NCBI GenBank assembly: GCA_048940925.1
Contig: JBHLOC010000011.1
Location: forward strand, 1-64,000
DNA length: 64,000 nt
From: Promethearchaeota archaeon
Lineage (GTDB): Archaea > Asgardarchaeota > Lokiarchaeia > Sigyniarchaeales > SOKP01
Reading direction: 5' to 3'
Part shown: positions 6,954 to 50,637 of the stretch, piece by piece
How positions within the stretch are numbered: the first letter of the stretch is position 1
How the letters are laid out: the number at the start of each line of letters is the position of its first letter
Program-made: the position numbers and the translations under genes
The notes under the pieces: generated by a model
Databases searched by the model: none
What the model was told of the DNA's origin: nothing
What the model saw: the letters and a program-made list of their open reading frames with translations, nothing else

Positions 6954-8507
6954 TCATGTCATTTGGTCTTGCTTCACAAAATATTCAGCTGCTAATTTTA
7001 TATCTTCAATTGATAAAGACCTACCGAGAGATTGCTCTAAATCTACAACCAACTGTTCACATAATTCAAAGCTTAAAGTACTCCCTTTATCCATGATCAT
7101 ATCTTGTAAAACATTTATGAAATCAGTCGCTTTTGGTTTATCTAATTCTTCTGTTAACTCCTCATGAGGAGGGAACAATTTAACTGGCATTTTAGTTTCA
7201 TCTATTTCGATTTTCTCTTCTTTATCTCCAGAAAATATCACAGGTTTTGGAGGTGCTTCAGCAGTTTTAAGAATTTTTAAGTCCATTGGTTTTTTTTCTA
7301 ATTTCTGAAAAGATACCATTTTATGTGGTGCTTCTGATGAAGAAGGCACTTCTATTTTTTCAGGTTTTTCTGTTTTAAATGCCTCATCCAATGGTTTAAC
7401 AGTTGGTAATGGCTTAACAGAAATTTTTCTTTTAAATTTAAGGGCGGGAGGAATCTTAAATTCTTTTTTCAGTTCAGTTTCCTTTCTTTTTTCTAACTTT
7501 TCTTTTATTTTAGCATTTAATACTTTAATTCTTTCTTGAATAATTTTAACATGTTCAAAATCTTGATATGAATCATACAAGCTATTCAATTCTTTAAATC
7601 TAGGCAATGCTTGCACGTATTGTCCACTTTCAGCTAAATTATTTGCTTTTTTCATTAATTCTTCAAAATTTTCAGGAATTTCTCTTTTTAAACCTAATGC
7701 ATCTTTAATATATTGTAATGTAATTGATTTTGCATCTGAGGAATTTAATGAAATTTCCTTAAAATCATATATATTAAGTTCATTCTTAATCCTTTTAATT
7801 TCCTTATCCTTAATTAAATCTCTTTTATTCCCAATAATTAATAGTTTTGAGTAATTGCTTTCAAGTTTTTGAAGGTCTAAGAATTGATTAATAGTTTTTA
7901 AATTATAATTCGATAAATCAAACAGTAAGATCACCAAATCAGAACCACTTACAAATTTTGCCCATAAAGGAGAGAAATTGTCTTTTAACTGAAAATCCCA
8001 TAATTCAAAGGTTAAACCATCAATTAACAAATTGCATGATTTAACTACTTCCATTATGATCTTTTCTCCGTTACTTCTTAACATATTATAAAAAGTTGTT
8101 TTACCTGCATTTATAGGACCTATAATTGTAATTTTTGATCTTAGGTCTTTTTGAATTTGATCTAAGAAATTATTAAATTCAGTTTTTATCGCACTATCTT
8201 CATCTATAGTCTCAGGATTTGGAAACAACTCTTTAAATTTTTCTATTGTATTTTCTATAAGTGGTTTAATATATGGAAGAGGATCAATTAAATCTGTAAT
8301 AAAAAGAAAATACAAATTATCTATCCCTTTGTGAAATATTTGAAAGTTAGAAATTTTACGATTAAAAATCTTTCCAGGTATAGGCATCTCCATATATTTT
8401 AGAATTGTTTCTTTTACATTTTTCAGTTCTTCATTTCCATAAGCAATAGCATAATCTTTAACAAAAATATGTTGTGTTGAATAAAAAATATGAATTTGTC
8501 TTAACAT
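6954..8507 (-). CDS. Longin-like domain fused to a Ras-superfamily small GTPase domain, with helical and low-complexity tail
   Basis: N-terminal ~120 aa longin pattern (FQIFHK..NLYFLFITD..IEKFKELF); G1 GPINAGKTT, degenerate G3 WDFQ, G4 NKRD. Confidence 0.75.
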   Translation of the reverse strand: MLRQIHIFYSTQHIFVKDYAIAYGNEELKNVKETILKYMEMPIPGKIFNRKISNFQIFHKGIDNLYFLFITDLIDPLPYIKPLIENTIEKFKELFPNPETIDEDSAIKTEFNNFLDQIQKDLRSKITIIGPINAGKTTFYNMLRSNGEKIIMEVVKSCNLLIDGLTFELWDFQLKDNFSPLWAKFVSGSDLVILLFDLSNYNLKTINQFLDLQKLESNYSKLLIIGNKRDLIKDKEIKRIKNELNIYDFKEISLNSSDAKSITLQYIKDALGLKREIPENFEELMKKANNLAESGQYVQALPRFKELNSLYDSYQDFEHVKIIQERIKVLNAKIKEKLEKRKETELKKEFKIPPALKFKRKISVKPLPTVKPLDEAFKTEKPEKIEVPSSSEAPHKMVSFQKLEKKPMDLKILKTAEAPPKPVIFSGDKEEKIEIDETKMPVKLFPPHEELTEELDKPKATDFINVLQDMIMDKGSTLSFELCEQLVVDLEQSLGRSLSIEDIKLAAEYFVKQDQMT

Positions 8508-27913: not shown

Positions 27914-28663
27914 TTAAAGTGCCTTTCCTTGTTCTGCCACTGCGTTTATAGCTTTTTGAATTTCTTCAGGATTTCCAAGATAATAATGTTTTATTGGTTT
28001 TAAGTCATCATCTAATTCATATATTAAAGGAATTCCCGTCGGAATATTTAATTTTAGAATCTCCTCATCAGAAATATTATCCAGATATTTAACAAGAGCT
28101 CGTAAACTGTTACCATGAGCAGAAATCAAGACTTTTTTATCAAATTTGATTGTAGGTGCTATTGTATCATGCCAATAAGGTAATACTCTGTTGACCGTAT
28201 CTTTTAAACATTCAGTCAAAGGAATTTGATCAGCAGTTAACTCTGCATATTTTCTTTCATTACCAGGATATCGAGGATCTGTTGTTTTAAGAGGAGGAGG
28301 TGGGACATCATAACTTCTTCTCCAAATCAACACTTGTTCTTCACCCATTTCAGCGGCCATTTTTGCTTTGTAAAATCCTTGTAAGGCTCCATAATGTCGT
28401 TCATTCAATCTCCATGACCGATGAACTGGAATCCACATTAAATCCATCTCTTCTAACACAATCCACAGAGTTCTTATACCTCTTTTAAGTACTGATGTAA
28501 ATGCAATATCAAATGAATATCCACCATCTTTTAATAATCTAGCTGCTTCTTTCGCTTCTTGAATCCCTTTTTCCGAAAGATCTACGTCAGTCCAACCTGT
28601 AAACCGATTTTCTTTATTCCAAATACTTTCCCCATGTCTTAAAAATACAATTTTATACATCAT
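27914..28663 (-). CDS. gpmA: 2,3-bisphosphoglycerate-dependent phosphoglycerate mutase
   Basis: [52 protein letters not shown]. Confidence 0.97.
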
Positions 28664-28780
28664 ATATCAGCTTCTTGACTTATAATAATTGTAATATTAG
28701 AATGTTTAAATTTTAATAAATATCTCTTATTTTTTAAATATATAGATTGTTCAATGATTCTTTTTTTAGACTTAAAAAGT
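28574..28780 (+). repeat. Direct repeat, left copy (gpmA 5' end and upstream region)
   Basis: 28574-28650 identical to 35234-35310 (77 bp); next 40 bp have 6 mismatches; weaker similarity beyond. Confidence 0.95.
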
Positions 28781-28938: not shown

Positions 28939-31104
28939 ATGGCTTATGTGAGTTTAGATGATGAAAATTTAGAAGTAAAAAAGGGTAAATTGGATCTAAG
29001 TTCGAGAAACATTAAGGATATAACTGAAATTAAGGGTTTAAAGAATTTTTCAGATATACAAGTTTTGTATTTTAATAAAAATGAAATTAGGGAGATTAAA
29101 GGTCTAGAAACACTCAAGAATTTACGAATCTTAGACTTAAGCGATAATTTAATTAATGAGATTAAAGGTCTAAAATTTCTTAGTAAGTTACAGTGGTTAG
29201 TTCTTAGAAATAATAAAATAACCGAGATTAAAGAATTGAATTATCTTAGAAATTTAAAAATATTAAATCTACAACATAATGAAATTACTGAGATTAATGG
29301 ATTAGAAACACTTACTAACTTACAAGAATTAATACTTAATGATAATAAAATTACGGAAATTAAAGGATTAGAATATTCAACCAATTTACAAGAGTTGGAC
29401 ATTATAAATAATCAAATTACCACAATTAAGGGATTAGATCTTCTTACTAATTTAGAACGATTATCACTTAATAAGAATCAAATTTCTAAAATTATTGGTT
29501 TGGAAAACCTAATAAACTTAAGGGAGTTGAGTCTTGCTGGAAATCAAATCACTCATATTAATAATTTAGAAAGCCTCACGAAATTAAGAGTACTAAATCT
29601 TAGTAACAACCAAATTATAGATATTAAAGGATTAGAATCCTTAGTTGGTTTAAAATTTTTAAATCTTAAAGATAACCAAATACCTGCAAAATTAATTAAA
29701 AATTTAGGTGGATTGAATCAAAAAGGTATCGCAAATAATCCACAAACATTTGTTGAATATTGTCAAAAGAGATTGGAAGCGAAAAGAGAAGAGAAGGAAA
29801 GAAAACGGGCTAATGCTATTCATTACATTAAAAAATTACCGAAGATATATAGTGAAATTACATTTGAAAAAATTATGTCAAAAACAGGGATTAATTTGGA
29901 GGAATTAGAGCACCTAATTGAGACAATGATTTTTAACAAAGAAATTAATGCCCAAATTAGTGGTACTAAATTAATTTTCAAAAGAAAGGAAGAAAAACCA
30001 TTTTCTAGATCTGAAAAAGTAACACAAATCCCTTTAACCATCAGTGAATATAGAAGTAGAAACATTGAAATATCAAGAGGTGGAGATTGGAAAATTGAAG
30101 GAAACCAGAGCGTATTTCATTATAAAGTAAAAATAAAAAATTTATCTCAGTACATTATTTCAGATATCCAAATAATTTTTGGTGATGTACCACAGGGATT
30201 AGAATTAAGAACAGAGAAATTAATTGAATTTTCAAAATTAAGCCCATATAATGTTGTTTCACCTACATACAAGTTGTATGCTACTGATAACTGTGTTGGA
30301 AGTGAAATAAAGGGCATTGTTAATTATAGTGATCATTTTGGAAAAACATATACAGTTAAGATTGAGCCATTTGAAATTCATTATGTGTGTAATTTACTTA
30401 TACCAAAGAGGATTTCTAGAGAGGAATTTGATAGAAAGATACAATTCATGCGAGGGAGAACAATGATAATTGATAGTAGCCTAAATCCAGATGAACTAAA
30501 AACCATTGTCAAAAAGAACATAGAAGAATGCAATTTTGCTTTACTTCAGGAAATTAGAGATGCCCAAAAGGAAGGATTTATGAGAATAGAAGGATTAGCG
30601 CAAGGTCTGTATGATAAACAAGATGTTGCTATATCAGTTGCTATGAGGCGATTAGAGGCGGGATCAGAGCTAAAAATCAAGACTTTAAGCGATGAATACG
30701 CAAAGACTACTGATCTTATGAGAGATATTAGTATTAAATTAGAGGATATTAAAAGTGATACTCAAAAAATTGAAGATATTATTTATTATATTGATGAATC
30801 AAAAATTAGAGAAACAATAGGTATAATTATTCAAAACCCAAAAGACTTAAAAAGAGTGATTTATAAAGTTATAAAAAATCCCGAATGGTCTGATGAAGAA
30901 AAAAATAAATGGGCAAAAATTGTAATGGAAACTCTTAATTATTATAAGGTATTTAAACCTCCACTATGGTTAAAATTCGTCCAAAAAATTACCAAAATTA
31001 CTTTAGGAGAATCTGCATCAAAAGCAATTACGAATGGAGTTGAACAATTAGTAAATTGGATAAATGGAAAAGTTGTTAAAAAAAAAATGAAAGAAATGAA
31101 TTGA
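28939..31104 (+). CDS. SDS22-like leucine-rich-repeat protein with PCI-like winged helix and adaptin-appendage-like C-terminal region
   Basis: About 10 22-aa LxxLxLxxNxIxEIKGLE repeats; YSEITFEKIMSKTG...LIETMIFNKEINAQI; beta-sandwich followed by LLIPKRISREEF. Confidence 0.8.
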   Translation: MAYVSLDDENLEVKKGKLDLSSRNIKDITEIKGLKNFSDIQVLYFNKNEIREIKGLETLKNLRILDLSDNLINEIKGLKFLSKLQWLVLRNNKITEIKELNYLRNLKILNLQHNEITEINGLETLTNLQELILNDNKITEIKGLEYSTNLQELDIINNQITTIKGLDLLTNLERLSLNKNQISKIIGLENLINLRELSLAGNQITHINNLESLTKLRVLNLSNNQIIDIKGLESLVGLKFLNLKDNQIPAKLIKNLGGLNQKGIANNPQTFVEYCQKRLEAKREEKERKRANAIHYIKKLPKIYSEITFEKIMSKTGINLEELEHLIETMIFNKEINAQISGTKLIFKRKEEKPFSRSEKVTQIPLTISEYRSRNIEISRGGDWKIEGNQSVFHYKVKIKNLSQYIISDIQIIFGDVPQGLELRTEKLIEFSKLSPYNVVSPTYKLYATDNCVGSEIKGIVNYSDHFGKTYTVKIEPFEIHYVCNLLIPKRISREEFDRKIQFMRGRTMIIDSSLNPDELKTIVKKNIEECNFALLQEIRDAQKEGFMRIEGLAQGLYDKQDVAISVAMRRLEAGSELKIKTLSDEYAKTTDLMRDISIKLEDIKSDTQKIEDIIYYIDESKIRETIGIIIQNPKDLKRVIYKVIKNPEWSDEEKNKWAKIVMETLNYYKVFKPPLWLKFVQKITKITLGESASKAITNGVEQLVNWINGKVVKKKMKEMN

Positions 31105-31118
31105 TTTTTTAAAATCTA

Positions 31119-34100
31119 TTATCTTGTGATTTCCTCATAAAGCTTTTGGATAAATCCTTCGAAATCATCTTTTGTATATTTCACGTTTAACATCTGCCAT
31201 AATAATCGAGGGATATTCTCTTCATCTTCATAGACAGGGATAATTTTCATTAATCCCTTTTTAACCATTTGATAAGCGGACTGCCATTCTCCTTTGACAG
31301 CTTCAGATTTTATCGAATTCTCTGAACAAAATAAAATAAATGCGTTGGTTTTTCTAAGAGTCTCTTCCATAAATTCTACAATATTTTGTTTGCTATCAAC
31401 TTCCCAGAATAACACTTCATTAATTTCGGGATAAAGTTGCAAACGTCTAACAATTTTTGAGACTTGAAAGTGATCAGTATCTAATGTGGAATAACTAATA
31501 AAAACATTCAGTTTCACTGCTTTTTCCTCTGTCGGTATAGCAGCTACAGCAGCTGCCTCTATAGCAAGAGCTTTAGAACTCGAGAAATATTCTCCTTGAA
31601 TCTCTTTGTTTCTAATCATATCTTGAATGACACTCTCAATTAGAGCTTCATCTAAAACACCACTTTTTTCGCTAATGTCGATGAGCTGTAAACGAGTAAA
31701 CCTTGCTCCTAGAGTAAAAATCGTCTGTTTAATTCGATTAATAGTCTCTATTTCTGATCTTTTACAGGTAACTATCATTTCTTCAGCTTTATTTTCTATA
31801 TCCATTAAATGTTGATTTTGAGCTTCCTTTTGAATCTCAACTAAGTTTTTTAATGCCATATCCAATTTATTCTCTTTAATTAAAGATTCAACGATAGAGA
31901 GTCTTTTTTGAAGTTCTTCCTGAATTAATTTCTTCTGTTGCTCAATTTCTTCTCTTTCTTTTTCTAATCTATCCTTTTCCCTCTTTTCTTCTGCTGTTAC
32001 TAATAATCCATATACTTCTTTTTTATAGACCGCGATTGCGTCTTCAGCTTTAGCAATATCTAATTCGATTTTTTCCCTATATTCATTTAAGTCATATTTC
32101 ATGGCAATTTCTTTCGATTCATTAAAGCTTGTTATTGCTTGGGATACAGTTTCTATCGCATCATTATATCTTTTTTCTTTAGCAAGTCCATTAGCTGTCT
32201 CAACGAGAGATATAGCTTTATCATAAAATTTATCAACTTTGATAGTATGAATCTTACTTCTAAAAGAATCGATTTGATCGTTTATCATAGGTATAAGATT
32301 AGAATTGAAAATATCAGCTTCTTTTTTAGCATTTCCTAATGAACTAATTGCTTTCTCATAATATTTTTTTGCTTTGCCAAGGTTACCAGCTACTATAGCC
32401 GTTGTTGCATCTTCTGTTAAAGTTTTGACTATTCTTACTATTTTTTCGTAATTCTTCATTGCTGCTGAAACCTTCTCTTCTTTTTTAATCACTGCTTTAG
32501 GTTTTTCTTCTACTAGTTTCTCTTTAACTGGCTTAGGTTTAGGAGGTTTCCTTTTCTTAGTAACCACGAAAAAAGTTACTACCGTCAATCCTGCAATGGC
32601 TCCTACTATAATGCCGATAATTAATATCAGGTTAATTGGGTGTTTGGGAAGCTTAATAACAATTTGTAGAACATTCGACTCAGTTTGTCCGTAACTATTA
32701 TAAGCAATCACAATATAATAATAATCCCCAGTTGATAATCTAGAGATAGTGTAAGGGGAAATTGCATTCTGATATTCGAGTGAAGTTATACTTGCATTTA
32801 TTTCTGAAATATACCTATGGTAAGTATATAATGAATAATTATCTGCATTGTCAGAAGAGGTCCAATCTAGTCTAATGTTGCCATCAGTATCCGGGTTGCC
32901 TGCATCGGAAGTTAATTGAAAGGAACCTGGTAGACGACTTGCGAGTGTTTGCAACCACTTTACCGTATAAAAATCAAGTCTTCCTAAAACATTGTAACTA
33001 ATTCCTTGCACATCTGCTCTATGAACTTCTTGTGCAAAATAAACATATGTTGGTATGTGGGTGCAGGATCCAGGTGTATCAAGACGCACATCATAAATAT
33101 AGGATTGCAAGTCCATCCATTTTATTAGTTGAGCATTATAGTCAGTTTCAGATACCGCATCATCTATTTGCTCTATTAAACCGCCAGGACTAGTATCGTT
33201 ATTTCGAGAAAAACAGGATTTGGAAGCTAAGTTGAATAATGGAACAATCATGCTATATGGATTAAGGTAATCAGGAGCCCAACCAATTGTACTAACATCC
33301 ATCTCCCATGGTGTTTGTTGTCCCGTATCTCTATACTGATTCCAATCTCTTTCTGTTACACTACAATTTATTCCTATTAACTTCCAGTTAGCCATGAATA
33401 AATTATTCAAATCCAAATTGAGAGTTGAATTCAAAAATTGATTTAATCTTATATTTCTTCCAAGGAGATTTGTTCCTGTCCAATCGGCCTCGTTAAGCCC
33501 CCCATAGGTTACATCCCATCCAGAAATATCTGCACCTGGCAACTGACTATTATGATCTTTCATGATTTGTCTTGCCCATTCAATGGAGGCTGTATAACCA
33601 TTATCAATAGTATAATTGTGACCCATATAAACCGAAGCATTATGACCAGCCATCGAGCGTGGTATAGCGGGGATTCCATAAGTGGCTTCTCCAGCTAGAA
33701 TCTCTTCAATCATTTTTGTAGAGTTTAACGATATAGCCATAGCCCTTCTCAACCATGAAGGATTTCGCTGCTGTTGATAATCATATGGTATTATCATTGT
33801 ACCATTCGCATATTTTGGACCACAATATATCTCAATATAATTATAAGCCATACTTTCACCAACATCCTCTACGTGCATAATTTCTGTAGCTCTAAAGCTG
33901 TCAATATATGATTTTGGTACATCTGTAACGTAATCATAAATCCCTGTTAATCCAGCATTCATTCTAGTTGACTCTTTCTCAACGATGTACCAGATCATTT
34001 CTTCAATTTCTGCTTTTCCACGCCAGTAGTTATCATAAGCATGAAAGCGAATATCAAGATCTTCTCTATAATTATCATAGATAAAAGGACCTGTACCAAT

Positions 34101-34796
34101 TATTTTGTTAGTTGTTAGGTTAAGATAATTATATTTAGGAGTAGATGAAGGAGATAAGATCGAACTAGCAGGAAAAGTTAATAAATCTAATAATGAACTA
34201 AATGGGACGTTTAAATTTATGGTAAAGTTGTAAGCGCCATCACTTTCAAAATCTTTGAAAAGATATGTACCATTTACCAAGTAATATAACTCTGATGGAG
34301 AAGCAGTCCAACAAGTCGAATTTTGAGGGAGAGTACCAGATACATTACAAAAATACATAAGCCTTTCAAAATTCCATTTAACAGCAGTAGCATTTAATGG
34401 TGTTCCATCATGGAACATTATGTTTTCTCTAATCTTAAATGAAATTCTTGTACTATTTTCCCAAATCCAGTATTCAGCAAGCAAAGGCATTATCTCATAG
34501 TTAGGATGGGATGATAAATCGTATTTAACTAATCCTTCTACAACTTGGTATTGCACATTCAATGAAGGCATATCCCAACTAGTGACAGGATCAAGTGCGT
34601 GTGGATTGAAACTAAATCCTACGATAAATGGTTTAATAGATGTATTTTGACTTGAAATAGGAATTGAGTCAAGGGAATACTGACTATTAATATTTTTATA
34701 TTTTGGATTTATTACAATTAAACTTATCGAATTTGACAAATTTGCGATTAAAATTAGAAAAATTGGGAAAAAACGCCTTATTACACTTTTATTCAT
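31119..34796 (-). CDS. Single-pass receptor-like protein: SBP family 5 ectodomain, FN3-like, TM, helical/coiled coil, PCI-like wHTH, TIR domain
   Basis: N-terminal hydrophobic signal; LDP..VEGL..PLLAE.W..FHDGTPLNATAVKWNFER..GTGPF; TM LILIIGIIVGAIAGLTVVTFFVVT-KKRK; VFISYS...FILFCSENSIKSEAVKGEW. Confidence 0.88.
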   Translation of the reverse strand: MNKSVIRRFFPIFLILIANLSNSISLIVINPKYKNINSQYSLDSIPISSQNTSIKPFIVGFSFNPHALDPVTSWDMPSLNVQYQVVEGLVKYDLSSHPNYEIMPLLAEYWIWENSTRISFKIRENIMFHDGTPLNATAVKWNFERLMYFCNVSGTLPQNSTCWTASPSELYYLVNGTYLFKDFESDGAYNFTINLNVPFSSLLDLLTFPASSILSPSSTPKYNYLNLTTNKIIGTGPFIYDNYREDLDIRFHAYDNYWRGKAEIEEMIWYIVEKESTRMNAGLTGIYDYVTDVPKSYIDSFRATEIMHVEDVGESMAYNYIEIYCGPKYANGTMIIPYDYQQQRNPSWLRRAMAISLNSTKMIEEILAGEATYGIPAIPRSMAGHNASVYMGHNYTIDNGYTASIEWARQIMKDHNSQLPGADISGWDVTYGGLNEADWTGTNLLGRNIRLNQFLNSTLNLDLNNLFMANWKLIGINCSVTERDWNQYRDTGQQTPWEMDVSTIGWAPDYLNPYSMIVPLFNLASKSCFSRNNDTSPGGLIEQIDDAVSETDYNAQLIKWMDLQSYIYDVRLDTPGSCTHIPTYVYFAQEVHRADVQGISYNVLGRLDFYTVKWLQTLASRLPGSFQLTSDAGNPDTDGNIRLDWTSSDNADNYSLYTYHRYISEINASITSLEYQNAISPYTISRLSTGDYYYIVIAYNSYGQTESNVLQIVIKLPKHPINLILIIGIIVGAIAGLTVVTFFVVTKKRKPPKPKPVKEKLVEEKPKAVIKKEEKVSAAMKNYEKIVRIVKTLTEDATTAIVAGNLGKAKKYYEKAISSLGNAKKEADIFNSNLIPMINDQIDSFRSKIHTIKVDKFYDKAISLVETANGLAKEKRYNDAIETVSQAITSFNESKEIAMKYDLNEYREKIELDIAKAEDAIAVYKKEVYGLLVTAEEKREKDRLEKEREEIEQQKKLIQEELQKRLSIVESLIKENKLDMALKNLVEIQKEAQNQHLMDIENKAEEMIVTCKRSEIETINRIKQTIFTLGARFTRLQLIDISEKSGVLDEALIESVIQDMIRNKEIQGEYFSSSKALAIEAAAVAAIPTEEKAVKLNVFISYSTLDTDHFQVSKIVRRLQLYPEINEVLFWEVDSKQNIVEFMEETLRKTNAFILFCSENSIKSEAVKGEWQSAYQMVKKGLMKIIPVYEDEENIPRLLWQMLNVKYTKDDFEGFIQKLYEEITR

Positions 34797-35233
34797 TTTC
34801 TTTACCCTTTATTTTTATAATTGAAACTAAAATGAGTTTAGATTGTTTTCAAAATTTCTGTTTAACACTATTGTATATTGTATAATATATAATTTTCATA
34901 TCATCATATATAATACTTTTTACATCATAGTCTAAAGTCTTTTAAAGTAGCCTATAAGATATAATATTCAAAACAAGGTCTCCTTAATTTTATTTAAAAA
35001 GCATGTTTCAAAATAAAGTTAAAACCAGTAGAATTAGCATCAAATGCAATTACAAATTAAGTTGAAACAGAAATAACTAAAAAAAAATCTAACGGATGAT
35101 GATATTGGTCTACATGAGATATTTTTACTACTTTCCTTATAATTTTAAAAAATACATATATATGAATCGATCCGCAGAAAAATTAGTACATATAAAAATC
35201 AAATTCAATGGGAAAGTTATTTAAAACACATTG

Positions 35234-35440
35234 CGAAAGATCTACGTCAGTCCAACCTGTAAACCGATTTTCTTTATTCCAAATACTTTCCCCATGTCTT
35301 AAAAATACAAGTTTAAACATTATATATCAATTTCTTGACTTATAATAATCGTTCTAGTAAAATACTTAAAAATTAATATTTATCTCTCTTAATTCTAATT
35401 TTTAGAAGAATTTAATGGTTTTCTTTTTGATCTTAAAATG
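35234..35440 (+). repeat. Direct repeat, right copy: orphan gpmA 5' fragment ([29 protein letters not shown] on the minus strand) plus upstream region
   Basis: Matches 28574-28780 at offset 6660. Confidence 0.95.
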
Positions 35441-45229: not shown

Positions 45230-46225
45230 TTGAACCACTCCTTAAATATTGATAAAAGACAGGAACTTTTTGCCTACTTGTTATTAGTTTTAACTATGGT
45301 TATTTGGGGAGGAACTTGGCCATTAGGTCGATGGTTAGTATCTGAAGAAGTTGGTGGAGCAACAATTCCTCCACTAATGATTGCAGTGATACGCTATTTC
45401 TTAGCTATAGTATGTTTTTTTCTCATTCTTAAATATAAAGAAGGAACTTTAAATTGGCAATTTGCTAAGGAAAATTGGAAAGTTTTAACTATTATGGGAT
45501 TATTATCTGTTACAATTTATCAAACAGGTTATCTACTAGGTGAAATCTTTACATCTGCAAGTGATGCTAGTATAATGGTCGCAACAAACGCAGTTTGGGT
45601 TGTAATTATTTCCAGCATCTTCTTGAAAACAGAACATTTTAGTTGGAAAAAAATTATGGGGACTACATTAGCATTTATAGCCGTGATATTAGTAGTGGGA
45701 TTTTCTCCAAATGTGGATGTTTTAAATCGTATTCTTGGGGATATTTTAATATTGATAGCTGCATTTGCTTATGCGATATATACAGTAATTTCGCGGTTTT
45801 TCTTGAATAAAACTCAAAAGAATTCCGAAGCTTATCAACCAAGCTCTTTATGGATGATTACATGGATATCTTTTTTTGGATTTCTAGTTACTACTCCAAT
45901 AGCATTAGTAATTAGTCCAGAATTTCTTAATCCATTAGAATATTTTACCATTCCAGTTCGAGTGTGGATTGGAATTGCATATTTAGCATTTTTATCTACA
46001 ATAGGAGCATATACATTCTATTTAGAAGGAGTTAAACGTTTAGATGCTAGCAGGGCTGCAATATTCCAAACATTAGTGCCATTATTCGGAGTAATCTTTT
46101 CTGCTATATTTTTACAAGAAAAATTTGATGTATTTATATATCCATTTGCCTTGATACTAGTAATTTTGGGAATAACTCTTGTGAATCTTAAATCTTCTAG
46201 AGATGTAAAAATAGAAATGAGTTAA
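45230..46225 (+). CDS. DMT/EamA family transporter
   Basis: IWGGTW, 10 TM, duplicated EamA halves. Confidence 0.9.
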   Translation: MNHSLNIDKRQELFAYLLLVLTMVIWGGTWPLGRWLVSEEVGGATIPPLMIAVIRYFLAIVCFFLILKYKEGTLNWQFAKENWKVLTIMGLLSVTIYQTGYLLGEIFTSASDASIMVATNAVWVVIISSIFLKTEHFSWKKIMGTTLAFIAVILVVGFSPNVDVLNRILGDILILIAAFAYAIYTVISRFFLNKTQKNSEAYQPSSLWMITWISFFGFLVTTPIALVISPEFLNPLEYFTIPVRVWIGIAYLAFLSTIGAYTFYLEGVKRLDASRAAIFQTLVPLFGVIFSAIFLQEKFDVFIYPFALILVILGITLVNLKSSRDVKIEMS

Positions 46226-47585
46226 GTTGTATTTTTTTCTTTATATCAATATTTATGAGGTTTTTTATTCTTTTACTTAAACTAACTACTACAATGGCTA
46301 GAATACCAAGAAGAATGTAGAGATGATATCCTGGAATAACATCTTTTTTACATTTGTTATTTTTAAAAGTGTTACCTTCACAATTTACTTCTTCAATACA
46401 ATTATCATTTCCAATTAAATTATTTTTCGAAATCACGTTATTATTACTTTCTGTCAAATGAATACCATACTCATTGTTCGTTGCTGTATTTTCTGAGATT
46501 TCGTTATCATCACTACTTTGTAATTGTATCCCATTAGTATTGTGATTGGCAATGTTTCCCGAGACCTTGTTATTATTACCATTATCCACCCATATGCCCG
46601 ATTCTCCATTGTCGCTTGCTTCATTTCCCGAAACATTATTAGAATTACCGTCTATACGGGCTCCAAAACCACCATTATAGCTTGCGTTATTTTCCGAAAA
46701 TATGTTATAATGCCCCTCTATGGTTATACCGTTACCATTGTTGTTTGTTATATTATTTCCCAAGATATGGTTATAATTACTATTTTCCCATAAATCCATG
46801 CCATGTTCATTGCTATCCATTGTATTTTCCGAAATTACGTTATAATCACCACCTATACCTATTCCACCTTCCACATTCTTATTTGCAATATTTCCTGAAA
46901 TAGTGTTATTATTACAACCTGACAGAAATATTCCAACACCATCATTTTCATTCATAGTATTTTCTGAAATAGTAACATAACTCAAAATGTCTGCATATAG
47001 CCCCTGCGCACCATTGTTATCTATACTATTTCCTGAAATTATGATGTTAGAACAATTCTCTACGTGTAATCCATCATTTGTGTTGTGCTTTACTAAGTTT
47101 CCCAAGATATAATTATTGTTACTCTCTTTGAGGTTTATCCCATAAAAATTAGAAGTGCAATTGTTCTCTCTTAATGATCCATTATCTGTTGTTTCAAGAG
47201 AGATTCCAACATAAGAATTAAAAACCGTACAATTCTCAATCCTAAAGTATACATCAGAATTTTCAATTGAGATGCAACTTCCCGAACCTCCTCCATTTAT
47301 GATCAGATCTTCTATAATATAAGGATCGGAAGAAGTGCCTGAACCAGTACATATTGTCGCAGCCTTAGCAGCAATCCAACCCGCATTACCATCTATATAT
47401 ATTTTTCCCGAGATTTTTGAATTTTTCAAATTTTCGTCATTAAAAGTAATAGCATCGCTATAATCTGAAGTTCTTGCTATAAAGTCAGGTTTACAGAAAC
47501 TTATACCTGTTAAAGCCAAAACAATTCCCAAAGTTAATAATGTCAATATTTTACTTTTTGATTTTAAATTTGATTTTGATTTTAT
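46197..47585 (-). CDS. NosD/CASH beta-helix surface protein with IPGY-TM (Loki-CTERM-like) tail; start extended from 47546
   Basis: GSGTSSDPYIIE, Asn-rich GIxLxxSxNNxIxxN repeats, VIPGYHLYILLGILAIVVV-KR; GGTGA + 6 nt + ATA at 47585. Confidence 0.82.
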   Translation of the reverse strand: MKSKSNLKSKSKILTLLTLGIVLALTGISFCKPDFIARTSDYSDAITFNDENLKNSKISGKIYIDGNAGWIAAKAATICTGSGTSSDPYIIEDLIINGGGSGSCISIENSDVYFRIENCTVFNSYVGISLETTDNGSLRENNCTSNFYGINLKESNNNYILGNLVKHNTNDGLHVENCSNIIISGNSIDNNGAQGLYADILSYVTISENTMNENDGVGIFLSGCNNNTISGNIANKNVEGGIGIGGDYNVISENTMDSNEHGMDLWENSNYNHILGNNITNNNGNGITIEGHYNIFSENNASYNGGFGARIDGNSNNVSGNEASDNGESGIWVDNGNNNKVSGNIANHNTNGIQLQSSDDNEISENTATNNEYGIHLTESNNNVISKNNLIGNDNCIEEVNCEGNTFKNNKCKKDVIPGYHLYILLGILAIVVVSLSKRIKNLINIDIKKKIQLNSFLFLHL

Positions 47586-48652: not shown

Positions 48653-50371
48653 TTATTTTTTCCTAAATGAAAATCTTTTGAGTTTATCTAGAGAAATTTT
48701 CCCTGTTTTTAAAAGAATTCCCAATATCGCACCTATAATAACTAATCCTCCAATAATGGAAAAAACGACGATAATTGCTATGGCACCTGGTTCTAATCCC
48801 CTTGGAGCACTTTTGATTATCGTAACACTCACTGATACTTCATTTCCCGCGAGATCCCTGGCATAGAACGTAATAGTGACCTCTCCATTGGCTAATGCTG
48901 CCCATGTTGCCTGGTTAATAGTCCCTGTATCATTCACCGTAAAATTGGTAACTCCTTCATCAAGCGAATACCAAATTGTGTCTAAGTTAACGTCAGTCAC
49001 ATTAAGAATAAAAGAAGGTGCCTTTTTACCAAATTTTTTTCCTTCTAACGGTGAATCGATAACGATTGTCGGCGCTACTGTATCCTTGATTATATTAACC
49101 TCAGCAAAAGTGATATTTCCAGCAATATTGCTAGCATAAAACTTAAGTTTAATTAAACCATCAACCATAGTATCCCACGCAGTTTGATTAATCTTGCCAT
49201 TTTCTGTAAATGTATAATTATTCAATCCATTATCAATAGTATACCACTTATTAAGGAAATAAGCATCTATAATTTCTAAATCGAAAGATGGAGCGATACT
49301 ACCAAATGCATCTCGAGGATTAGGAAACTTTATTATAATCCTTGGTTCAGCAATCGGTAGATAATCTTTACTGTTCGCAGGACCAGCTATAAATATATAA
49401 GGAGTATCCACAATGCCATCATTATTGACATCTGGACCAGTATGATTATCCCAGTAATTTCCAATTATTGTGCTATTCCATATATTATCGCTTCCCTCAT
49501 CAATCGCATGTTTTTCATTCTCCAAAAAGAAATTTTTATAGATTATATTATTATTGCTTCCCTCTAATCTAATGCCATACTCAACATTGTTATAAAGGTT
49601 GTTTTCTATGATGGTATTGAAATCACTACTAAAACCTAAAAATATCCCAACAACATGGTCATATGCAATATTTTCAAAGATATCATTATATTCACTATGA
49701 GATATATACATACCATATTCAAAGTTGGTTACCGTGTTATTGTTGATGCTATTATGATTGCTATAAGATACACCAATTCCATTTTCAGATCCATGGACTT
49801 TATTATCCTGTATTCCACTAAAGTTACTTTGAGATAAAGATATTCCTACGTAAGAATTATAAATTGTATTTTTTGTAATATTTATATTTTCACAATCATT
49901 CAAATCGATTCCATAGTCTATCTCCTGAATAGTGTTATTAATAATTAAACCATCAGTAGAGTTATCTAAATATATAGCTGTTCCAGATGTATAAATACCT
50001 CCAATCCAGATAAATGTACAATATTTTATTGTGAAATAAATATCATATGAATTGCTTATCTTAATCCCATCGTTAGTATTATCTATCTCTAAGGTGTGAC
50101 CTTGAATGATATAAGGATTTTCTGAAGTTCCTAAACCAGAACACCATATTTGAGTCTTTGCCCATTCCCAATTATTCCAACTTCCCGGAAGGTTGTCAAT
50201 TGTGATATTTGCATAGGTGCCAGAAATTTTTACATCAGTTATATCATCATTCTGTACATAATTATCAGTCCTAGAATTACTTAAATATCCAGAATTATGA
50301 AAATATAAAAATCCTACGATGAGCATCAATTCAATAAGACTTATACACATTTTACGTAGATTCGGTTTCAT
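48653..50371 (-). CDS. NosD beta-helix surface protein with two Ig-like repeats and C-terminal TM
   Basis: GLGTSENPYII, GNYWD...DGIVDTPY, repeated WYxxDxGxxN..INQxxWxx.xxGxxxxxFYAxxxAGN; likely start MKPN at 50371. Confidence 0.85.
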   Translation of the reverse strand: MKPNLRKMCISLIELMLIVGFLYFHNSGYLSNSRTDNYVQNDDITDVKISGTYANITIDNLPGSWNNWEWAKTQIWCSGLGTSENPYIIQGHTLEIDNTNDGIKISNSYDIYFTIKYCTFIWIGGIYTSGTAIYLDNSTDGLIINNTIQEIDYGIDLNDCENINITKNTIYNSYVGISLSQSNFSGIQDNKVHGSENGIGVSYSNHNSINNNTVTNFEYGMYISHSEYNDIFENIAYDHVVGIFLGFSSDFNTIIENNLYNNVEYGIRLEGSNNNIIYKNFFLENEKHAIDEGSDNIWNSTIIGNYWDNHTGPDVNNDGIVDTPYIFIAGPANSKDYLPIAEPRIIIKFPNPRDAFGSIAPSFDLEIIDAYFLNKWYTIDNGLNNYTFTENGKINQTAWDTMVDGLIKLKFYASNIAGNITFAEVNIIKDTVAPTIVIDSPLEGKKFGKKAPSFILNVTDVNLDTIWYSLDEGVTNFTVNDTGTINQATWAALANGEVTITFYARDLAGNEVSVSVTIIKSAPRGLEPGAIAIIVVFSIIGGLVIIGAILGILLKTGKISLDKLKRFSFRKK

Positions 50372-50637
50372 TCTTATAACCGTTATAGAGAAAATTATGT
50401 AAGTTGATATGATTTCTTTTAATTTAAATATTATTAGATTAATTGACATAAGGGTAAGAAATTATTTAGGGTTCACTCTCAGATTAGAGAGATAACACTA
50501 ACATTTAAAGCAAAGAAATATAGTTATATAAAAAAATCTATTAAGGTAATGAAAAAGACTCATTAGTTTATTTAAATATTTTAAATGTTCTCTATATATT
50601 ATATAATAATTATGCTTATAGACCAAACAATAATACC

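Follow-up and report, generated by a model that had tools for sequence, protein, structure and literature searches.

Within the 64,000-nucleotide stretch of Promethearchaeota DNA analyzed here (hereafter the window; positions 1 to 64,000 of contig JBHLOC010000011.1), a gene on the minus strand (31119-34796, protein P0001) encodes 1225 amino acids (aa) without an internal stop, in which a signal segment, a family-5 solute-binding protein (SBP5) domain, an FN3-like stalk, one transmembrane (TM) helix, helical bundles, a winged helix and a TIR domain follow one another. A second gene converges on it from the plus strand (28939-31104), and its 721-aa product consists of leucine-rich repeats (LRR), a PCI winged helix, an immunoglobulin-like (Ig) plus platform region resembling adaptin ears, and a helical tail. 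Judging from the sequences, we give an even chance to the reading that the first protein is a receptor clustered by its ligand, whose TIR domain splits NAD+ without cyclizing the product, that is, a noncyclizing NADase. An earlier note on this DNA had called the protein the best candidate for a novel system in the window. The receptor is real, but the novelty does not lie in a single fusion: the gene is one of about eight close TIR paralogues with differing outer domains in this genome, a point that had been missed, and what appears to be new is a whole family that swaps outer domains on a conserved TIR tail.

The string of domains given in the earlier note was borne out by Pfam, hydropathy, profile comparison and structure models. 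All parts lie on the minus strand. The N-terminal hydrophobic segment, recognized by hydropathy (34707-34772, aa 9-30), may be either a cleaved signal or a signal anchor. The solute-binding ectodomain (32943-34637, aa 54-618) matches Pfam SBP_bac_5 above the gathering score (aa 101-522, profile positions 1-362 of 368, E 8e-46) and is OppA/DppA/NikA-like in NCBIfam and Protein Data Bank (PDB) comparisons too. The stalk (32643-32933, aa 622-718) has no Pfam match in its own copy; the top PDB matches of a profile built from 17 stalk copies are all Fn3/titin-type chains (3mpc, E 9e-5). There follow the TM helix (aa 723-745) with its basic stop-transfer KKRK (aa 747-750; together 32547-32630), a cytoplasmic helical region (31761-32486, aa 771-1012), the PCI-type winged helix (31557-31754, aa 1015-1080) and the TIR domain (31122-31508, aa 1097-1225), the last matching Pfam TIR_2 above the gathering score (aa 1098-1218, E 1e-14). 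A bacterial promoter scan gave counts at chance level.

A chimeric join of the two halves, which the earlier note had named as a possible undoing of its claim, was looked for and not seen. Contigs of three sequencing runs, X1, X2 and X6, were compared with the locus: a single X1 contig spans 31348-34900 with 0 differences and a single X2 contig spans 31192-33692 with 1 difference, although either run may be the source sample, and in X6, another sample from the same study, a contig spanning 32188-33128 with 0 differences joins the end of the SBP domain, the stalk, the TM helix and the start of the cytoplasmic part. At least 13 further SBP5-TM-TIR proteins come from independent assemblies in JGI, ENA and NCBI; the relatives carry database names such as Promethearchaeota, Lokiarchaeota and other Asgard metagenome-assembled genome labels. 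Bridging contigs and the recurrence of the architecture together rule out chimeric assembly.

The two halves are predicted to lie on opposite sides of the membrane. The receptor has 17 N-x-S/T sequons in the 688 aa before the TM helix and 1 in the 484 aa after it, and across the receptor set the density is 2.95 per 100 aa before the helix versus 0.21 after it, a 14-fold difference, with basic residues directly following the helix. N-glycosylation of an extracellular solute-binding protein at N-X-S/T sequons is known from Asgard archaea (PMC11284389). The sequon asymmetry and the basic stop-transfer support a single-pass type I protein, with or without signal cleavage, whose SBP would be outside and TIR inside the cell. 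Comparison indicates that the ectodomain is a complete binding domain of the OppA type, in all probability glycosylated.

The ancestry of this ectodomain bears out the idea that a transport-binding protein was reused as part of a receptor: in the tree, it groups (100/100) with the SBP encoded in a complete oppABCDF operon elsewhere in the same genome (contig C3), to which it is 45% identical, in a clade that also takes in TIR-less SBP5-FN3-TM proteins. A single clade of all receptor SBPs is rejected (p-AU 6e-6, in a test from which two long-branch rows were left out), and the closest TIR relatives share TIRs that are 88-92% identical yet differ in their stalks and in their SBPs, whose identity is only 27-31%; transporter binding domains have thus been grafted onto the TIR tail several times. 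Neither an Opp permease nor an ATPase gene is found on the 102-kb contig that holds the receptor (C55), in agreement with the earlier note, and no ABC permease or ATPase lies beside the receptor in any of the six related loci with called genes. One could still imagine that the SBP is tethered to the membrane to feed an Opp transporter whose genes lie elsewhere, or that the fusion is an accident, be it neutral or of assembly, and the identity to the operon SBP as well as the orphan and C-terminally anchored SBPs in the genome and the family would fit; we consider this most improbable in view of the repeated independent SBP-TIR fusions, the purifying selection on the TIR domain and the clean bridging contigs. 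At another locus (L130:3983-11136), the gene right behind a Peripla_BP_6-TIR receptor encodes a TIR-less SBP5-FN3x3-TM protein (P0003, its SBP 54% identical to that of our receptor), a possible co-receptor or decoy.

Our best guess for the ligand, from aligned residues, is an oligopeptide; the cell-wall fragments offered by the earlier note as another choice found no support. W506 and D509 align with the W-x-x-D motif of OppA, of which the Asp binds the peptide amino terminus, and where OppA has, three residues ahead of the Trp, the Arg that binds the carboxylate, the receptor has a Thr; this Arg is also missing from the SBP of the opp operon. Family 5 proteins bind metals, opines and sugars as well.

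The TIR domain, with a ratio of nonsynonymous to synonymous substitutions of about 0.04-0.05 among four orthologues, is under strong purifying selection. Its best fold match is the TIR of the NADase Cat1 (Z 15.4, root-mean-square deviation (rmsd) 1.6 A across 115 residues); the TIRs of plants, of Hydra TRR-2 and of MyD88 come within 1 Z of that match. E1170 aligns with the catalytic-position Glu of Cat1, and this Glu is present in 74 of 74 and in 151 of 155 domains of the clade, which keeps a betaA S-Y-S motif and an alphaC Ser alongside it. The Trp of the WxxxE motif is replaced by A1166, and 143 of the 155 clade domains have Ala, Ser or Pro there, the clade as a whole being without an aromatic residue in that place. 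All cyclase TIRs assayed have an aromatic amino acid here, four residues before the Glu (10.1101/2022.05.07.491051), and cyclic ADP-ribose signals from the receptor are therefore unlikely; we predict linear ADP-ribose, weak activity or a scaffold role instead. The earlier idea of an NADase or signal producer thus stands as far as the conserved Glu goes and is weakened where the signal was to be a cyclic ADP-ribose isomer.

Self-association of the TIR domain is predicted by a four-copy model, which scored 0.64 versus 0.00 for the best control. Among solved pairs, 20 of 30 attained this mark, and among single chains 1 of 23 did; these counts are rough in this application, which used its own alignment with NAD carried along. 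The runs have at least 88% of contacts in common and a pLDDT (model confidence) of at least 86. Invariant residues make the modeled contact, from alphaB/alphaC to the alphaD region, in a manner resembling the BCD interstrand interface of AbTir, MAL and MyD88. This agrees with the oligomerization-type TIR assumed in the earlier note, although the pass may mirror likeness to TIR arrays that have already been solved.

An interface of this scaffold type raises the question of whether the domain is an enzyme at all. As in Toll-like receptors (TLRs) and MyD88, it could be a nonenzymatic scaffold, its array recruiting cytosolic proteins with TIRs of the same clade (LRR-PCI-TIR, tandem-TIR and TIR-PCI-TIR forms) together with PCI partners; the missing Trp, the invariant residues on the predicted surface and the occurrence of such soluble proteins in this and other genomes all fit. 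We take this explanation seriously but find it doubtful, as it leaves the near-universal Glu, the S-Y-S motif and the alphaC Ser to be accounted for, and AbTir forms an array of the scaffold type and is an active enzyme.

If the receptor makes linear ADP-ribose, a reader may be encoded close by. A RelA_SpoT-TPR-SLOG gene occurs in 10 of the 41 genomes of the genus, all 10 of them positive for the TIR clade, and in about 8 it lies within 10 kb of a TIR gene. SLOG domains of the TRPM type bind linear ADP-ribose, and we regard the SLOG protein as a lead for the reader of the predicted product; kinship among the genomes confounds the association, as relatives are not independent. The adjacency of this gene to TIR arrays, with a weak ThsB_TIR Pfam similarity of the receptor TIR below the cut-off, could also speak for a Thoeris-like scheme, in which a cyclic ADP-ribose isomer, made without the alphaC aromatic, would activate the SLOG protein. 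This seems improbable, however, as the position that is aromatic in every assayed cyclase holds Ala, Ser or Pro in nearly all of the clade. No ThsA-type effector (SIR2-SLOG, TM-Macro or other) lies beside the receptor at the locus, and none was matched by PADLOC.

In the cytoplasmic model (mean pLDDT 84), which ends in a TIR fold, a pair of three-helix bundles comes first, then a long helix, a hairpin whose repeat number differs among family members, and the winged helix. The region described in the earlier note as TPR-like or coiled coil is thus indeed built of helical bundles, but its identity as MIT or TPR stays at the level of generic-bundle likeness: the second bundle (aa 847-933) matches MIT domains at Z 11-12 and rmsd 1.4-4.7 A, a level that generic helical bundles reach as well, the Pfam MIT match (E 2e-4) is under the cut-off, and Foldseek with the whole cytoplasmic part gave mostly generic helical matches. 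The PCI-like winged helix is better defined, by the model, by Pfam PCI matches in homologues and in the LRR neighbor, and by a profile comparison between receptor and neighbor (hhalign probability 77, E 2e-5), which was alone in linking the two, pairwise BLAST giving no match.

The LRR neighbor itself has no TM helix or signal segment. Close orthologues of its gene stand tail to tail with a TIR receptor in five of five cases (four with SBP5 ectodomains, one truncated), and the pairs sit in at least four different genomic settings; the gene evidently travels with this receptor subgroup, which bears out the linkage, and its product presumably contacts the receptor. The Ig plus platform region, in a low-confidence model (mean pLDDT 49), has adaptin and COP appendages as its top fold matches (Z 8.5-9.1), an Atlas search with the C-terminal part gave weak Ig/CARDB-type rows only, and in other receptors the platform domain is fused behind the TIR. 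Besides the LRR gene, a conserved operon effector was looked for at the receptor locus and not found.

The appendage-like fold and the MIT-like bundle suggest yet another role, that of a cargo or adhesion receptor tied to membrane trafficking, in which the SBP would capture a solute or surface, the bundles and the PCI/adaptin-ear partner would lead to machinery of the ESCRT (endosomal sorting complex required for transport) type, and the TIR domain would mainly cluster. Many ectodomains of the family are adhesin-like, and a passage of one study connects archaeal ESCRT systems with adaptin-appendage, PCI and TPR domains (PMC10936438). We nevertheless think this unlikely: the MIT match is of the generic kind, the bundles are missing in many family members in which the TIR is constant, the partner model is of low confidence, and no ESCRT gene was recognized among the neighbors examined, some of which are unannotated.

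Weighing these alternatives, we favor the clustered NADase receptor, which might work as follows. An extracellular ligand, likeliest an oligopeptide or a peptide-like surface feature, would close or cross-link the binding domains, and bound receptors would cluster in the membrane. The clustered TIRs would form a parallel array of the MyD88/AbTir type that completes the active site, where E1170 would split NAD+ into nicotinamide and mainly linear ADP-ribose, with modest turnover for want of the stacking Trp. The output would be a local ADP-ribose signal or a drain on NAD+, read in part of the genus by the neighboring SLOG protein, and the cytosolic LRR-PCI-ear protein may dock through the matching winged helices as a regulator or adaptor. 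The purpose could be to detect other cells, viruses or particles of food at the surface; defense is plausible but not singled out.

Several observations weigh against this reading, the loss of the WxxxE Trp in the receptor and throughout its clade among them. Exchange of that Trp for Ala lowers cyclization and activity in AbTir and leaves none in the plant TIRs L6 and ROQ1 (10.1101/2022.05.07.491051). SPARTA uses alphaB aromatics in place of the Trp (PMC10474274), and by-eye alignment suggests that these, too, are absent from the receptor TIR. TLR2, IL-1R9 and IL-1R10 carry the Glu yet are inactive (10.64898/2026.04.20.719644), and the Glu is thus by itself no proof of catalysis. The TIR-less SBP5-FN3-TM proteins indicate that the outer half can work without signaling. 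About 350 residues of helices, variable in number, separate the TM helix from the TIR domain; a spacer so long and variable makes rigid signal transmission unlikely and clustering alone plausible. In another genus (g14), the SLOG gene was found in 0 of 41 genomes, and 16 of these have the TIR clade. Finally, a PADLOC scan matched no family, and no defense-island context was seen at the receptor locus.

Receptor and LRR gene entered this locus as a 6.66-kb insertion at gpmA, between the copies of a 176-nt direct repeat. The left copy (28571-28746, minus strand) takes in the opening 30 codons of the intact gpmA and the region upstream; the right copy (35231-35406, minus strand), a truncated 5' remnant of gpmA at the far edge of the insertion, is 86% identical to it and has an identical core. 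The site is empty in three genomes (G018, G008 and G021), where gpmA adjoins the downstream genes and the pair is missing from it. The insertion contains no integrase, and no flanking repeats surround the pair in G008, G021 and G024. In G024, a gpmA 5' remnant (L121:11324-11477) lies ~6 kb from the intact gpmA and brackets no receptor. A dedicated integration system is unsupported for these last reasons, the unbracketed remnant and the missing repeats, and the 5' end of gpmA may be a recurrent site of recombination.

The family is large. Besides the SBP5 receptor, the inputs of the close TIR paralogues in this genome include NosD beta-helices, a Peripla_BP_6 flytrap, a propeller, Ig domains, a 4-TM unit and a soluble LRR; SBBP is also among the inputs recorded for the clade, and LVIVD and FG-GAP propellers and PKD domains are found in it outside this genome. 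A profile search with the TIR clade returned 263 clusters at E <1e-30; 53 of the 139 new top matches have a long segment, a TM helix and then the TIR, and many others are fragments or soluble forms, tandem TIRs included. The clade is present in 25 of 54 sampled genomes of the Asgard family to which this genome belongs versus 4 of 196 others in the phylum, in 0-11 copies. A range so narrow and patchy argues for a lineage-specific expansion whose Toll-like layout is convergent with TLRs. Recognition genes that evolve under conflict typically show such patchiness, together with arrays, shuffled domains and movement as cassettes. A literature search, with subscription papers outside its coverage, found no description of the family.

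Five of the paralogues form an array of co-oriented membrane TIR genes with differing outer domains on another contig of the genome (C34, about 69600-93100; L001:7663-L002:14137), which includes a TIR-less SBP5-Ig-TM gene and is followed by the RelA_SpoT-TPR-SLOG gene. In five loci, beta-helix TIR receptors are immediately followed by a coiled-coil-rich gene of 526 aa (L001:12566-14146, plus strand); it belongs to a widespread archaeal hypothetical family without a Pfam match, for which we found no function. Three soluble LRR-TIR proteins are encoded in the genome, an LRR-PCI-TIR protein of the receptor clade (L004:5527-6960, minus strand) and two with a divergent TIR that keeps the Glu (L005:5913-7505, plus strand; L006:6305-8707, minus strand). 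Six other cytosolic proteins of the clade have two to four tandem TIRs or a TIR-PCI-TIR layout (P0072, P0073, P0074, P0075, P0149 and P0166) and are candidates for adaptors or preassembled enzymes. Some receptors (P0145 and P0146) have as their outer domain a propeller of the FG-GAP, integrin-alpha-like type; between TM and TIR, a weak match to a Swt1-like HEPN takes the place of the winged helix. A site by the PHO4/PhoU phosphate transporter genes holds different TIR receptors from genome to genome and is a variable receptor locus (L039, L059, L062, L072, L129 and L130). An SIR2-TPR protein and a HEPN/nucleotidyltransferase pair (L126:2129-4492, minus strand) lie 5-9 kb from the SBP5-TIR receptor P0006. 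Within the window, two TIR-less NosD beta-helix genes (46197-47546 and 48653-50449, both minus strand) are of the type that serves as receptor ectodomain elsewhere, and a 517-aa protein (6954-8507, minus strand) has an internal Arf/Ras-like small GTPase domain (aa 119-268).

Taken together, one Asgard lineage may have built Toll-like surface surveillance independently, with reshuffled outer domains on a TIR enzyme tail, cassettes with LRR-PCI partners and linear ADP-ribose passed to SLOG readers; we offer this wider picture tentatively. To our knowledge, the characterized prokaryotic TIR systems sense intracellular events and outside-in TIR receptors are seen as an animal design. If this wider picture holds, the receptor would be the first TIR enzyme of a prokaryote that an extracellular ligand switches on. 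A family of this size in Asgard archaea shows that ordinary prokaryotic parts suffice to build the ectodomain-TM-TIR layout. The family allows ligand gating of a TIR enzyme across a membrane to be tested and bears on how Asgard cells recognize partners, food or viruses at their surface. A 2026 preprint, in a passage on Asgard LRR proteins, calls their function unsettled and a shared role as receptors improbable (10.64898/2026.10.28.762692), in contrast to the LRR protein here, which is linked to a membrane TIR receptor. The family's narrow range speaks for a parallel invention and not an ancestor of TLRs, which limits any claim about the origin of eukaryotes.

Among known systems, Toll-like and interleukin-1 receptors (IL-1Rs) come closest in layout, with a glycosylated ectodomain (predicted here), one TM helix and a cytoplasmic TIR at the C terminus, paralogues expanded into arrays, siblings lacking the TIR that are possible decoys, and a parallel TIR assembly (again predicted here); some TLR TIRs are enzymes (10.64898/2026.04.20.719644). 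Where the animal receptors have LRR or Ig ectodomains, however, this one has a transporter binding protein plus FN3 and no LRR match, the LRRs being on a separate protein without signal or TM helix; it also has a 350-aa spacer of helices and winged helix and a bacterial-type TIR_2 domain, in whose alignment the BB-loop Pro-Gly is missing and to which TLR2 matches only at E 0.3. With Cat1, AbTir, the TIR-APAZ protein of SPARTA and ThsB of Thoeris, it shares the TIR fold, the catalytic-position Glu and the predicted self-assembly, but those NADases answer to cytoplasmic triggers, whereas the sensor here is outside the membrane and the WxxxE Trp is absent; it has no ThsA, Argonaute or CRISPR partner and no PADLOC match. 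Its SBP_bac_5 domain is complete, with the W-x-x-D motif, as in OppA and DppA, and sister to that of the genome's own opp operon, yet it is fused to a TM helix and a TIR, has no permease or ATPase on its contig and holds a Thr at the Arg position of OppA. Class C G-protein-coupled receptors, natriuretic-peptide guanylate cyclases and BvgS-type kinases are likewise receptors with solute-binding-protein ectodomains, in which a Venus flytrap is reused as a sensor, and a paralogue on contig C59 even has a Peripla_BP_6/ANF_receptor-like ectodomain; these, however, have other SBP classes and other outputs, and we know of none with a TIR output. The receptor is thus of the TLR/IL-1R type in its layout, while its ectodomain sets it apart from the TLRs themselves and its gene context from both Thoeris and the ABC importers.

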